A program made the translations under genes and the position numbers. A DNA stretch of 27,266 nt from Armatimonadota bacterium (GTDB lineage: Bacteria; Sysuimicrobiota; Sysuimicrobiia; Sysuimicrobiales; Humicultoraceae): contig JBBIOM010000005.1 of NCBI GenBank assembly GCA_037443365.1, positions 73,545 through 100,810 on the forward strand, read 5' to 3'. The notes below the pieces were generated by a model. That model searched no databases, was not told the DNA's origin, and saw only the letters and a list, made by a program, of their open reading frames with translations. Below are positions 6,192 to 8,931 of this stretch, one piece after another (positions within the stretch are counted from its first letter, which is position 1; each line of letters starts with the position of its first letter).

Positions 6192-6850
6192 GCAGAACTT
6201 TGGGACCCGTAGCCATCCTGGGTGGTACAGGCGATCTCGGCCGCGGCCTTGCCGCGCGCCTGGGCGCGGCCGGAGTGGAGGTAGTCATCGGATCGCGGGA
6301 CGCCCTGCGCGCGGCCGAGGCGGCTGCGCGGCTCGGGCTTTCCCGTGTGCGCGGGGCGGCGAACGCCGACGCCGCAAGCGCCGCGGAGATCGTCGTGCTG
6401 GCGATTCCCCATGAGGGTCACGCGGCGTTCGTCGAGGGGCTCGCCAGCAGCCTGGCAGGCAAGATCGTCGTGGACGCCACGGTGCCGCTTGGCCCCGGTC
6501 TTGTCTTCTCACCACCTGCCGCGGGATCGGCCGCGCGCGAGACCCAGACCCTGGCGCCCGGCGCGCGCGTGGTGGCGGCGTTCCACACGCTGTCGGCGCG
6601 CCTGCTCGCGGACCTGGCCCGTCCGTTGGATCAGGATGTGCTGGTGTGCGGGGACGACCCCGACGCCCGGGCCAGGGTGCTCGACCTGGCCGGGACAATC
6701 GGTGCCCGAGGGGTGGACGCAGGAGGGCTCGCCGCCGCCGCTACGCTCGAGGGCCTGGCCGTGCTGCTCGTTGGGCTCAACGTGCGCTACCGGCGGCGCC
6801 ACCTGGGCGTCCGCATAGCGCACCTGCCGATTGACGCCCGACCGCGATGA
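6188..6850 (+). CDS. npdG: NADPH-dependent F420 reductase (F420H2:NADP+ oxidoreductase)
   Basis: ILGGTGDLGRGLA Rossmann motif, IGSRD, VVDATVPL, GSAA, VVAAFH and DVLVCGDD. GTG start overlaps the upstream stop; cofE is adjacent. Confidence 0.9.
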   Translation: MSRTLGPVAILGGTGDLGRGLAARLGAAGVEVVIGSRDALRAAEAAARLGLSRVRGAANADAASAAEIVVLAIPHEGHAAFVEGLASSLAGKIVVDATVPLGPGLVFSPPAAGSAARETQTLAPGARVVAAFHTLSARLLADLARPLDQDVLVCGDDPDARARVLDLAGTIGARGVDAGGLAAAATLEGLAVLLVGLNVRYRRRHLGVRIAHLPIDARPR

Positions 6851-7602
6851 AGACGCTGCTGGCCTGGGCGCCAGAACCGTTTCCCGAGATCCGTCCGGGC
6901 GACGATCTCGCGGGAGCGATCATCACGGTGCTGCGCGGGGCAGGCCTGGCCCTCCGGCGCGGGGACATCGTCGTCGTGGCCCACAAGGTCGTCTCTAAGG
7001 CCGAGGGCAGTGTCGTGGACCTGCGCAACGTGACACCAACCGCAGCCGCGCTGGCCCTGGCAGAGGAATCCGGCAAGGACCCGCGCATGGTCGAGGTCAT
7101 CCTGCGCGAGAGCAGGGGGATCCGCCGGGTCCGCCCAGGGCTGATCATCGCCGAGCACCGTCTGGGCTTCGTCTGCGCCAACGCGGGCGTGGACCACTCG
7201 AACGTGGGTATGGGAGATGACGTGGTGGCCGTCCTGCCTGCCGACCCTGATGCCTCGGCCGAAGGACTCCGCGCCCGACTCTGCGAGGCATTCGGCGCCG
7301 AGGTGGGCGTGCTCATAAACGACAGTCACGGGCGTCCGTTCAGGCAGGGGACCACCGGCGCCGCGATCGGCGCGGCAGGACTGCGGGTGCTCCGTTCGTA
7401 CATTGGAGAGGAAGACCGTTACGGCTACGTGCTGCGCGTGTCGGTCGAGGCCGTTGCCGACGAGGTCGCGGCGATGGCGAACCTCCTCCAGGGTCAGGCC
7501 GCGGAGGGCACGCCGGTGGTGCTCGTGCGCGGCCTACAGCACTCGGGGAGCGAGCGCGCGGCGGACCTCGTGCGCGGCGCGGCGGACGATCTCTTCAGGT
7601 AG
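6847..7602 (+). CDS. cofE: Coenzyme F420-0:L-glutamate ligase (stand-alone CofE, no nitroreductase domain)
   Basis: PEIRPGDDL, KVVSKAEG, CANAGVDHSN, DSHGRPFRQG, AVADEVA, PVVLVRG and C-terminal DLFR motifs. Confidence 0.93.
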   Translation: MKTLLAWAPEPFPEIRPGDDLAGAIITVLRGAGLALRRGDIVVVAHKVVSKAEGSVVDLRNVTPTAAALALAEESGKDPRMVEVILRESRGIRRVRPGLIIAEHRLGFVCANAGVDHSNVGMGDDVVAVLPADPDASAEGLRARLCEAFGAEVGVLINDSHGRPFRQGTTGAAIGAAGLRVLRSYIGEEDRYGYVLRVSVEAVADEVAAMANLLQGQAAEGTPVVLVRGLQHSGSERAADLVRGAADDLFR

Positions 7603-7614
7603 CGGGGTGCGGCG

Positions 7615-8931
7615 ATGATAGTGATCACGACCGGCATCTCAGGCAGCGGGAGGCTCTCCGAGGCGGGCGGTTGCCCCGGGCACATCGTGCGCATGGTCGA
7701 GGAGGGTGGGGCGCGCATCGAGCAAGCCCAGCGCGAGGGCAGGTGGACATCTCCCATCAAGCGGCTGCGCTACGTTGACGTGGGGCGGTTGATGCTGGAG
7801 CGGGCCAGCGATCTCGGAATGGACGTGCGCACCGAGACGATCCTCGACATGTCGCCCGCCTCACTCAACGAGCTGCGCGCCATCGCGTTTACCGAGGTCG
7901 TCAACGACCCGGCGCTGTGGGAGCCGGACCTCTGCACCGTTCTGGTCACGCACGCCTGCTTCTGGTGGAAGGGCCGCCTGATCCCGGGGCTTGACACGCA
8001 CTACCTCAAGCTGCTGTTCGACGAGACGCGCCGCCGCGCGCCCAGCACGGAGGCGGCGGCCGTGCAGGAGCCGCTGCCAGGGCTGCGCCTGGCCCCGCCC
8101 GTGCATCCCGAAGGGATCTTCTATGCCACGATGGTGGACAGCGTCTACCAGATTCAACGTCGGCTCGAGGCCAGCGAGCAATGGCGCGGGCGCCTCCGGC
8201 CCGGGGAGATCATAGCCTGGCAGGAGCAGGAGGTCTTCATCTCCAAGATGCTGGCGGCGTACGAGCGGGTGCCGCACTACCTGATCGCGCACGGCGAGCC
8301 GGTGACGACCTTCTTCGATCTCATCTGCTTTAAAAGACCCAGGATCTACCTGGGCTATCCGATAACCAACCTGCGCCGCGATGGACAGGCGCAGTTGATC
8401 GAGATGGCGCGCGAGTTCGGCAGGCGGCTGCGCGAGCACTTCGTCGTCTTTGATCCCCTCTCGGTCAAGGACGAGGATGCCGCCGCTTTCTCTGCGATCG
8501 GCGATGAGGAGTTCGAGAGGCAGTTCTCGGCCGAACAGCGCGCCGAGATCCTGGCCTGGGCCGGGTCTCTGGACGCGGTGCGCGCGTGGGGGAGGGGGCT
8601 GGACGATCACACGCGCCTTCAACTCGCGCGGGCGACCGTGGTTCGGGACCTGCGCCTGATCGACCAGTCGGACATGAACGTGGTGTTCTACCCCACCAGC
8701 CAGATGTCGTTTGGCGTGCTCTCGGAGATGATCCACGCGCACACGACCGGCAAGAAGGTCTACATCGTCTACCCCCACAAGAGCATGTCCCCGTTCATGG
8801 AGTTCTACGCCACCGGGGTCCGGACGCCATCCCCCGGAGAGGCCGATCCCGCAACGCCGGCCGAGGTGGCGGCGTTCATGCGGAGCGCCTGCGACGCGCT
8901 TCTCGAGGAACTGACGGCGGAGAGGGAGTAG
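7615..8931 (+). CDS. Uncharacterised two-domain protein: archaeal-type adenylate-kinase-like N-domain plus nucleoside 2-deoxyribosyltransferase-like C-domain
   Basis: N-terminal part: IVITTGISGSGR P-loop, DVGRLMLERA, VLVTHA and LIPGL. C-terminal part: IYLGYP, VFDP, RDLRLIDQSD and SFGVLSEMIHAHTTGKKVY. Fills the gap between cofE and the GTPase with typical high-GC codon usage. Confidence 0.75.
   Translation: MIVITTGISGSGRLSEAGGCPGHIVRMVEEGGARIEQAQREGRWTSPIKRLRYVDVGRLMLERASDLGMDVRTETILDMSPASLNELRAIAFTEVVNDPALWEPDLCTVLVTHACFWWKGRLIPGLDTHYLKLLFDETRRRAPSTEAAAVQEPLPGLRLAPPVHPEGIFYATMVDSVYQIQRRLEASEQWRGRLRPGEIIAWQEQEVFISKMLAAYERVPHYLIAHGEPVTTFFDLICFKRPRIYLGYPITNLRRDGQAQLIEMAREFGRRLREHFVVFDPLSVKDEDAAAFSAIGDEEFERQFSAEQRAEILAWAGSLDAVRAWGRGLDDHTRLQLARATVVRDLRLIDQSDMNVVFYPTSQMSFGVLSEMIHAHTTGKKVYIVYPHKSMSPFMEFYATGVRTPSPGEADPATPAEVAAFMRSACDALLEELTAERE

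Follow-up and report, generated by a model that had tools for sequence, protein, structure and literature searches.

A two-domain protein encoded in a bacterial genome assigned to the Armatimonadota (Sysuimicrobiota in the GTDB lineage) appears to couple deoxynucleotide chemistry to a remodelled kinase fold. Its gene lies in a stretch of 27,266 nucleotides (hereafter the window; assembly GCA_037443365.1, contig JBBIOM010000005.1, positions 73,545 to 100,810 of the forward strand). It is an open reading frame for 438 residues that starts with ATG, 12 nt past the stop of the upstream cofE gene (Table 1). The N-terminal half of the protein adopts the fold of the archaeal adenylate kinase AdkA, and the C-terminal half that of the nucleoside 2'-deoxyribosyltransferases (NDTs) and of their relative DNPH1. 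We propose, with a probability of roughly 0.55, that the protein is an N-glycosidase or phosphodeoxyribosyl-transferase directed at 2'-deoxynucleoside 5'-monophosphates (dNMPs), in which the AdkA-derived domain would bind a nucleotide, build the dimer and regulate or present the substrate. The proposal is carried by a nearly invariant NDT-like active site in the C-terminal domain, by the family-wide relaxation of the phosphotransfer residues in the N-terminal domain and by structural matches for both halves.

Two folds in one polypeptide

An earlier note on this DNA, drawn from the letters alone, had read residues ~1-235 as an archaeal adenylate kinase and residues ~240-420 as an NDT fold. All the motifs that it quoted are present in the translation at the residue numbers it gave (G7-ISGSG-R13, DVGRLMLERA..LG, VLVTH113, LIPGL, IY245LGYP, FDP, RD345LRLIDQSD, S365FG367VLSE371, GKKV and SPF), and structure comparison of the two halves returned the AdkA and NDT/DNPH1/MilB matches that it expected. 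An AlphaFold2 model built on an alignment of 108 homologue rows has a mean predicted local distance difference test score (pLDDT) of 93.3 and a predicted template modelling score (pTM) of 0.92, with one weak stretch at residues about 141-170. In a VIA-align comparison over 48,161 chains, residues 1-240 matched the Aeropyrum pernix adenylate kinase 6ln3 (Z 20.3, root-mean-square deviation 2.2 A, 188 residues aligned, chain of 202) and the Odinarchaeota adenylate kinase OdinAK, 7owe (Z 17.0, 2.4 A, 167 aligned). Residues 239-438 matched the NDT 7o62 (Z 16.1, 2.3 A, 129 aligned), followed by 7m5h (14.8), 6evs (14.1), MilB 4ohr (13.8), PTD 1s2d (12.7), Rcl 2khz (12.1), 1f8x (12.1) and YtoQ 8of6 (12.0), with other P-loop kinases and TIR domains at Z 10-12. 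Foldseek was concordant, placing AdkA entries at E about 1e-7 (best quoted 9.6e-8), DNPH1 8rpt at 4.1e-4 and NDT 9ezk at 1.3e-3.

The N-terminal assignment is also evident at the level of profiles. The full-length profile (A1) reached the adenylate kinases 6ln3 (E=1.7e-12), 6pjw (2.9e-10), 1ki9 (5.1e-10) and 1nks (2.4e-9) in the PDB, the N-domain profile (A4) reached 6ln3 at E=1.6e-14, and in the profile alignments the N-terminal motifs match solved archaeal adenylate kinases residue for residue.

The same model accommodates a quite different reading, in which the two domains jointly build a composite site for a ligand of greater size, such as a nucleoside di- or triphosphate or a dinucleotide of the NAD or ApnA kind. 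The P-loop would then hold the phosphate or adenosine end and the NDT domain would cut the glycosidic bond, as in TIR-type NADases or ATP nucleosidases. A pTM of 0.92 implies fixed domain packing, the NDT domain is also TIR-like (Z 10-11), and the P-loop retains its glycines, in contrast to the relaxed catalytic residues. The adenine-contacting 'G..M' motif is retained as well (G57 in 83 and M60 in 70 of the 108 rows), M60 being the equivalent of Met43 of the M. igneus enzyme, which is described as lying near the AMP adenine. Nevertheless, the Z scores of 12-16 for NDT, MilB and DNPH1 exceed those for TIR domains, and the Ser-x-Gly phosphate pocket and the Tyr described below suit a simple dNMP; we therefore consider a composite site improbable.

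The NDT-like active site

The residues of the NDT-like site are close to fixed across the 108 rows: Y245 and P281 occur in all 108, G367 in 107, and D345 and E371 in 106 each. Position 365 is Ser in 96 rows, Thr in 4 and Ala in 7, and position 280 is Asp in 85 and Asn in 19. Other residues kept in this domain are R344 (101), K380 (100), S392 (88), P393 (104) and F394 (101). The earlier note had named a Tyr/Asp/Glu set with a Ser phosphate contact, and had made the conservation of E371 and Y245 among homologues decisive; both points hold at these counts.

Residue equivalences were taken from hhalign against fetched PF05014 domains, because the C-domain profile (A3) did worse against the PDB, reaching 4hx9 at E=0.65 where the full-length profile A1 reached it at E=0.016. 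Genuine PF05014 domains were drawn from Bacillota genomes, 5 of 201 of which matched at E<=1e-10, and the resulting NDT alignment comprised nine rows, with L102 left out. Against these nine domains the C-domain alignment scored 93% probability (E=5e-8, 122 columns). In this alignment Y245 falls on the NDT Tyr, D345 on the catalytic Asp/Asn and E371 on the nucleophilic Glu; P281 stands opposite the Pro of 'FSP' or 'YVP' that follows strand beta-2 in nucleoside-type NDTs, and S365 opposite the Asp that these enzymes carry six residues ahead of the Glu. L104, a DNPH1-like member of the fetched set, has Ser at the position equivalent to S365 and lacks the Pro after beta-2. With this single sequence hhalign gave low probabilities (25% global, 61% local) and misaligned beta-2, while D345 stood opposite an Asp of L104 and S392, at the same low confidence, opposite the Ser of its 'QLSAIL'.

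These equivalences can be set against published rules. The hallmark of the NDT superfamily is a Tyr/Asp(Asn)/Glu triad, members that accept a 5'-phosphate lack the Asp/Asn that holds the 5'-OH, and a Pro 'conserved in all known transferases' screens the site from water (PMC12884076). Y24 of DNPH1 corresponds to F17 of MilB, the pair setting deoxy versus ribo preference, and the F17Y exchange turns MilB towards deoxyribose and dCMP (PMC10603095, PMC4081090). The phosphate is bound by S98 in DNPH1 and S97 in MilB (PMC10603095); in MilB it contacts Ser97 and Gly99, and the catalytic Glu is E103 (PMC4081090). E55 of DNPH1 is described as freeing the intermediate, a role for which D280 may be a candidate in the fusion family. 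The S-x-G-x3-E spacing of S365, G367 and E371 is identical to that of the MilB residues S97, G99 and E103.

By these rules the site predicts a substrate that is 2'-deoxy and 5'-phosphorylated, and covalent catalysis through E371. Since Y245 is invariant and occupies the position at which DNPH1 has Y24 and MilB F17, a preference for deoxyribo- over ribonucleotides would be expected, which makes nicotinamide mononucleotide (NMN) or substrates of the cytidine monophosphate (CMP) type less likely. Thus, of the substrate range that the earlier note had suggested, the deoxynucleotide part is favoured and the NMN and CMP part is not. The DNPH1/MilB type combines Ser and Gly six and four residues ahead of the Glu with the absence of a transferase Pro after beta-2. 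The fusion family shares the former (S365 and G367) and departs from the latter, having P281 throughout, aligned to the NDT Pro. Because this Pro is of the transferase type, base exchange as in DmtZ has to be considered beyond hydrolysis. Having both a transferase Pro (P281) and a 5'-phosphate pocket free of charge (S365/G367) is a DmtZ-type feature, and the combination is otherwise described only for that phage enzyme.

The kinase-like half

Aligned to genuine AdkA, the N-terminal domain keeps the motifs 'TG.(S/P)G.G', 'G..M', 'THA' and 'PGL'. Its P-loop is degenerate: T6 is kept in 88 of the 108 rows, G7 in 94, S9 in 80, G10 in 94 and G12 in 55, whereas position 13 is Arg in 48, Lys in 39 and another residue in 21, and the Ser/Thr that follows it in AdkA is lost ('GKST' becoming G[RK]xx). 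Both Arg residues of the AdkA 'R-D-x-M-R' stretch, which we take to bind the AMP phosphate, are replaced, T73 and L77 standing opposite them; L77 is found in 102 rows, and the next position is Asp in 69 and Asn in 27. In the LID remnant a basic residue occupies position 191 in 53 rows and position 193 in 44, in a register relative to the AdkA 'RNR' that is uncertain, and the LID arginines taken as their counterparts in the M. igneus enzyme, R138 and R140, are described as essential. G12 together with Lys or Arg at position 13 is present in 46 of 108 rows and all four classical kinase positions in 16, among them the window protein, which carries G12, R13, R191 and R193. Other residues of this half are retained far more widely, namely the Walker-B-like D175 (91), R88 (91), H113 (97), F116 (96), W118 (94), W190 (86), W202 (105) and E206 (103).

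A housekeeping role is hard to reconcile with the genomes that carry the gene. The host genome (2.2 Mb, 97.7% complete) has one copy of the fusion and a canonical Adk elsewhere (PF00406, 160 bits), and in two of five archaeal genomes with a fusion a separate 196-residue AdkA lies beside secY; hence the fusion is not the housekeeping kinase. A name as plain adenylate kinase, which the automated JGI pipeline attaches to many homologues, agrees with the AdkA fold and motifs of the N-domain. However, the window protein fails the AdkA equivalog NF003122 (cut-off 155 bits) and has no NCBIfam match at all at E<=10, whereas one of the two separate archaeal AdkAs (L088) passes NF003122 with 167.6 bits. 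The AdkA arginines are replaced, and the name overlooks a domain of 200 residues with a conserved active site. We regard it as hardly tenable.

More serious is the possibility of a truly bifunctional enzyme, in which an active AdkA-like (d)NMP kinase works in sequence with the NDT-like domain. The NDT domain might swap the base of a dNMP and the kinase trap the new dNMP as a deoxynucleoside diphosphate (dNDP), or the kinase might convert a dNDP to a dNMP that is then hydrolysed. The window protein keeps G12, R13, R191, R193 and D175. The AdkA fold tolerates unusual P-loops, given that active Methanococcus AdkAs carry Gly in place of the Walker Lys, so that R13 by itself is not diagnostic. Further in its favour, Pro281 is transferase-like, all 12 Chloroflexota loci show translational coupling to an upstream dTMP kinase gene, and other kinase-NDT fusions recur, of which a PfkB-NDT protein was verified (see below). 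Yet the classical positions are kept together in only the 46 and 16 of 108 rows given above, the AdkA arginines have become T73 and L77, the Ser/Thr after the P-loop Lys is gone, and the phosphotransfer residues are under far looser selection than the NDT site. Bifunctionality is consequently the strongest competitor to our proposal and is, in our judgement, unlikely. The earlier note had offered two options, a bifunctional switch and a glycosidase gated by a nucleotide-sensing pseudo-kinase. Since the phosphotransfer residues are not conserved family-wide and L77 replaces an AdkA Arg, the evidence leans to the second.

A predicted homodimer

A two-copy prediction gave an interface score (ipSAE) of 0.43 (0.43, 0.46 and 0.41 in three runs), against 0.00 for the best control. 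Of 30 proteins that had been solved as pairs, 20 reached the mark of 0.42, as did 1 of 23 proteins with single-chain structures. Between the runs at least 85% of contacts agree, with a partner pLDDT of at least 83. The predicted interface is symmetric and lies in the AdkA-like domain, formed by the hairpin 115-124 (residues 115, 119-122 and 124), residues 128-129 and helix 198-216. Residues 119 and 121 of one copy are predicted to contact residues 339 and 343 of the other, beside the catalytic R344-D345. These predictions support, rather than prove, a homodimer formed through the AdkA-like domain.

Proposed mechanism and points against it

Under our proposal, the catalytic centre of a two-domain deoxynucleotide enzyme would be its C-terminal NDT-superfamily domain. 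A dNMP would bind, Glu371 would attack C1', the base would depart, and a covalent deoxyribosyl-5-phosphate-enzyme intermediate would arise. This intermediate might be resolved by water, in a DNPH1-like hydrolysis to free base and deoxyribose 5-phosphate, or by an incoming base, in a DmtZ-like phosphodeoxyribosyl transfer. The N-domain probably still binds a nucleotide, as it retains a glycine-rich P-loop, the Walker-B-like Asp175 and the 'G..M' and 'TH' motifs. With phosphoryl-transfer residues lost or relaxed, we infer that it is most likely a regulatory or substrate-presenting and dimerising domain and not a housekeeping kinase. A context of nucleotide metabolism is consistent with this proposal and comprises the dTMP kinase gene upstream in all 12 Chloroflexota loci, a homologue that bears a NUDIX domain, and a DeoC-family aldolase in the host (143 bits), which could be the user of deoxyribose 5-phosphate. 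The host also encodes a ribonucleotide reductase (354 bits).

Several points weigh against the proposal. The C-terminal domain is weak at sequence level: in Pfam the window protein matches PF05014 alone (E=0.0021, 18.6 bits, residues 333-389), below the gathering cut-off of 28.8, and profile A3 made only the poor match to 4hx9 reported above. Together with the empty NCBIfam result and a phmmer search of the PDB that returned nothing, this renders the protein nearly invisible to sequence libraries when it is searched singly. The substrate, the ribo/deoxy preference and the outcome as hydrolase or transferase are derived by rules from distant relatives of 13-25% identity, and should be read with that distance in mind. 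Calling the N-domain non-catalytic may be wrong for the window copy, in which G12, a basic residue 13 and both LID basics are kept, all the more as Methanococcus AdkAs manage without the Walker Lys. The strong conservation of D175, H113, W202 and E206 might mark a functional site of unnamed chemistry; this conservation, shared by R88, means that the N-domain surely does something. The dimer score is marginal (0.43 against the mark of 0.42) and was obtained on an alignment made for this analysis. Finally, gene context depends on the phylum and is mostly uninformative.

Homologues, distribution and phylogeny

A word-indexed homologue search, in which 8000 candidates were scored, yielded 72 proteins at E<=1e-3. 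Counting the query, 61 of these are ~438 residues long, share 67-100% identity, come from Armatimonadota-type metagenome bins and are named 'hypothetical protein' or, by the JGI pipeline, 'adenylate kinase'. The other 11 are Thermoprotei proteins of 319-389 residues with 25-35% identity over 81-92% of the query, including a Thermofilum pendens homologue (P0064) annotated 'AAA family ATPase'. Nine archaeal-type members were scanned: AAA_17 was found at the N terminus of all nine and PF05014 at the C terminus of seven (E<=0.1), P0066 alone exceeding the cut-off (31.3 bits). Matches of P0066 to the PDB by phmmer (PelA, FtsZ and viral nucleoproteins, E>=0.022) were discarded as noise.

An exhaustive search of 1.84 billion representatives returned 469 clusters at E<=1e-3; of these, 200 remain at a threshold of E<=1e-10 and 42 at E<=1e-30. 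Given the 469 and 200 clusters and the near invariance of the catalytic residues quoted above, the family signal is far above chance. Repeating the homologue search with the 108-row alignment added merely two unseen proteins of more than 200 residues and no new fusion. In a collection that represents each of 185,579 species by a single genome, pattern matching picked out 310 stretches, of which 183 encode a relative. The 80 best of these 183 belong to the Armatimonadota or Ca. Sysuimicrobiota (Fervidifonticultor, Geohabitans), the Bacillota and the Chloroflexota (Anaerolineae) among bacteria, and to the Thermofilaceae, Brockarchaeota, Bathyarchaeota, Nitrososphaerota and one Korarchaeota-labelled bin among Thermoproteota lineages.

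In a quick unrooted tree with 75 rows, all four groups come out as single clans, with SH-aLRT support of 100 for the three bacterial groups and 73 for Archaea, and a long stem leads to the Armatimonadota clade. The fusion gene of a contig labelled 'Betaproteobacteria bacterium' (L038) falls within the Bacillota clan, and its label is likely a binning or labelling error rather than a sign of gene transfer.

Nucleotide-cleaving NDT, TIR and PNP-like domains occur in defence systems. This, and the patchy distribution of the family across distant phyla, would suit an anti-phage effector that depletes nucleotides. Against it, PADLOC found no defence-family match in five members, the sole exception being a weak hit of a generic P-loop kind (PtuA in P0064, E=0.0039). 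The quick tree has one clan per phylum, housekeeping synteny is stable within phyla, the gene is single-copy, and no partner gene is conserved across phyla. A defence role thus seems very improbable.

A full-text literature search, with most subscription journals outside its scope, returned no paper on an AdkA-NDT or other kinase-NDT fusion, in keeping with the statement of the earlier note that no characterised protein with this architecture was known to it.

Domain variants and other kinase-NDT fusions

Some homologues carry further domains. P0204 (491 residues) adds a C-terminal NUDIX domain (PF00293, E=1.2e-12, residues 353-471) to the AdkA-like and NDT-like domains. P0170 (453 residues) has a ComEA-like helix-hairpin-helix, HHH_3 (E=9e-14, residues 273-327), within its NDT domain, at the same site as the helical insert of the Armatimonadota proteins, which in the model forms helices 286-292, 297-303, 306-316 and 319-327; the HHH_3 motif hints that some family members might contact nucleic acid. 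In members of ~600 residues such as P0114, the kinase-like domain is duplicated.

Another kinase fold has been joined to an NDT domain in a Bacillota protein of 412 residues (L101, 1423-2661, minus strand), which fuses a PfkB kinase (51.1 bits) to PF05014 (66.8 bits) and keeps the nucleoside-type Asp six residues ahead of the Glu. It is an independent kinase-NDT fusion with a different kinase fold. Atlas clusters that combine dNK, Tmk or KTI12/AAA_33 with NDT (scores 0.81-0.86) are to be taken as leads only. Two tandem PF05014 domains occur in proteins of ~329 residues (L095/L097 and L105/L106, in G006 C38 and G172 C210); beside their genes, within the same region of the contig, lies a gene for an NDT of one domain (L090, L100).

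Gene neighbourhood

Context was counted over 29 Armatimonadota loci and 51 other loci. The recurring Armatimonadota order is M16-M16-npdG-cofE-target-DRG-like GTPase. CofE precedes the fusion in 24 of the 29 loci, frequently separated from it by other genes spanning more than 1 kb, and the GTPase follows it in 17 of the 29, again frequently with genes inserted. In the 51 other loci all of these neighbours are absent. In the window, the coenzyme F420 gene pair directly upstream is clearly assigned (npdG 189.8 bits against a cut-off of 149.8, cofE 275.5 against 180.65) and suggests that this Armatimonadota/Sysuimicrobiota lineage uses F420. A link of the fusion itself to F420 was rejected, the cofE and npdG neighbours being kept within Armatimonadota only (0 of 51 elsewhere).

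The downstream gene encodes a GTPase with MMR_HSR1 and TGS domains that scores far below all bacterial Obg/YchF/Era equivalog cut-offs (best 70.9 against 406 bits); its layout resembles that of archaeal and eukaryotic DRG-type GTPases. Further along, the tandem thyX that the earlier note had reported is indeed present, with two Thy1 stretches in one reading frame. The link to the fusion that the note had tentatively read into it was not supported, as a tandem thyX lies near the fusion in 1 of 29 Armatimonadota loci and in none of the 51 others.

Among Chloroflexota, a dTMP kinase gene (TIGR00041, 170.8 bits, cut-off 83.25) lies directly upstream in all 12 loci, its end overlapped by the fusion gene, and a gene for a c-di-AMP receptor (DarA-type, PF06153) follows downstream in the same 12 (L043, L046, L050, L052, L054, L059, L061, L062, L064-L066 and L068). 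We take this arrangement to resemble the Bacillus tmk-darA cluster. Bacillota loci are flanked by genes for an M20 peptidase and a GGDEF protein, and archaeal neighbours show no pattern (ABCE1, TIM, 6PGL-like, glutaredoxin, GH3, radical SAM, AA-kinase-family and AsnC genes). A MiaB-like gene within 5 kb in nine loci was judged too loose an association for use.

Table 1. Features of the fusion gene and its neighbours, in window coordinates.
Feature	Position	Strand	Basis
F420 gene pair npdG and cofE	6200-7602	+	bit scores above cut-off
Whole gene, AdkA-like and NDT/DNPH1-like fusion, 438 aa	7615..8931	+	open reading frame list, translation, homologues, model
N-terminal archaeal-adenylate-kinase-like domain, residues 1-238	7615..8328	+	VIA-align, Foldseek, profile A4
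Degenerate P-loop T6-G-I-S-G-S-G-R13	7630..7653	+	conservation in 108 rows
L77-D78, opposite Arg of AdkA 'I-R-M-L'	7843..7848	+	conservation; aligned with true AdkA paralogues
T112-H113 motif and beta-hairpin C115-P124 ('THACFWWKGRLIPG')	7948..7989	+	conservation; AdkA-shared 'THA'/'PGL'; predicted dimer interface
Armatimonadota-specific low-confidence insert, residues 135-167	8017..8115	+	not in archaeal homologues; pLDDT 63-74
LID remnant W190-R191-G192-R193 and helix 196-216 with W202, E206	8182..8262	+	conservation; predicted dimer interface
C-terminal NDT/DNPH1-like domain, residues 239-438	8329..8928	+	VIA-align; hhalign against PF05014
Y245, catalytic-triad Tyr, putative deoxyribose discriminator	8347..8349	+	108/108; NDT Tyr by hhalign
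D280-P281, end of strand beta-2 ('VVFDP')	8452..8457	+	conservation; hhalign to NDT Pro
Helical insert inside NDT domain, residues 285-335, enlarged in Armatimonadota	8467..8619	+	model; short or absent in archaeal members
R344-D345, D345 the catalytic-triad Asp	8644..8649	+	101/108, 106/108; aligned to NDT Asp/Asn
S365-F-G367-V-L-S-E371, predicted phosphate-contact Ser/Gly and nucleophilic Glu	8707..8727	+	conservation; MilB spacing
S392-P393-F394 motif	8788..8796	+	conservation; low-confidence L104 alignment
GTPase with MMR_HSR1 and TGS domains, 325 aa	8960-9937	+	domain matches
Tandem ThyX, 555 aa	11185-12852	-	two Thy1 stretches (PF02511, E=4e-50)

Implications

DNPH1-type enzymes are known as nucleotide-pool sanitisers of animals, as antibiotic-pathway enzymes of Streptomyces and, recently, as base-swappers of Z-genome phages. 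The fusion family would extend this chemistry, coupled to an integral AdkA-derived module for nucleotide binding, to the core metabolism of many archaea and several deep bacterial lineages. Its Tyr and Ser-x-Gly residues provide a testable prediction of the substrate class, namely dNMPs. The family supplies a natural candidate for a thermostable phosphodeoxyribosyl-transferase, which would be of use in making nucleotide analogues, and it would illustrate how the fold of an essential kinase can be co-opted for regulation or scaffolding. Recognition of the NDT-like domain also corrects a widespread automated mis-annotation as 'adenylate kinase'. New in this analysis are the transferase-type Pro with its DmtZ parallel, the count of co-varying kinase residues, the predicted AdkA-domain dimer, the tmk coupling in Chloroflexota and the triple fusion with NUDIX.

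A bolder form of the idea, which we offer as speculation and think rather unlikely, is a cellular phosphodeoxyribosyl-transferase that swaps the bases of dNMPs in one polypeptide with an AdkA-derived module that adds a phosphate to the product or controls the reaction according to nucleotide levels. If true, many Thermoproteota, together with several bacterial lineages that are thermophilic or anaerobic, would possess a way to rebalance or salvage the deoxynucleotide pool that is independent of ribonucleotide reductase, whereas base swapping on dNMPs is so far known only from engineered NDTs and phage DmtZ.

Comparison with known systems

On the kinase side, the archaeal trimeric AdkA (NF003122; 6ln3, 1nks, 1ki9, 6pjw) shares the fold over the whole domain, at Z 20.3, and the motifs described above. 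The fusion differs in failing the equivalog, in having no Ser/Thr after the P-loop Lys, in carrying L77 for the Arg of 'IRML' and in having basic residues at the putative LID arginine positions in only about half of its members; it is also joined to a second domain, and in the two-copy model it is predicted to dimerise through its AdkA-like domain.

On the glycosidase side, the NDTs (PF05014; 7o62, 6evs, 1f8x, 1s2d) match the structure of the C-domain most closely (Z 16.1-12.1) and share its triad and the Pro after beta-2. They differ at the position of S365, where their Asp holds the 5'-OH, and the window protein stays below the Pfam cut-off for their family.

MilB and BlsM, N-glycosidases of CMP or hydroxymethyl-CMP (hmCMP; 4ohr), resemble the C-domain in fold (Z 13.8) and in the spacing of S97, G99 and E103. 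MilB is described as preferring ribose because of its Phe17, where the fusion family has an invariant Tyr. MilB-type genes are also linked to MilA/ThyA-like genes, whereas thyX near the fusion is not a conserved neighbour.

DNPH1/Rcl (8rpt, 9da4, 2khz) is alike in fold (8rpt at Foldseek E=4.1e-4, 2khz at Z 12.1), in the Tyr/Asp/Glu triad, in a Ser six residues ahead of the Glu that corresponds to the phosphate-binding S98, and in a Tyr as the deoxyribose-type residue. It is, however, a single-domain dimer of ~150 residues with 'LTEHV', including E55, after beta-2, whereas the fusion family has 'VVFDP' with its invariant Pro, an extra helical insert and an AdkA-like domain of 238 residues in front.

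DmtZ, described in PMC12884076 as an NDT-family dAMP hydrolase and phosphodeoxyribosyl-transferase of Z-genome phages, combines, as does the fusion family, a pocket that accepts a 5'-phosphate with a transferase-type Pro, a likeness that we draw from its description there. It too is described as occurring fused to a nucleotide enzyme, a Dut-like domain. DmtZ has Asn in its triad and is a phage protein of ~145 residues; the fusion family has Asp, is cellular in archaea and bacteria, and takes an AdkA-like domain as its partner.

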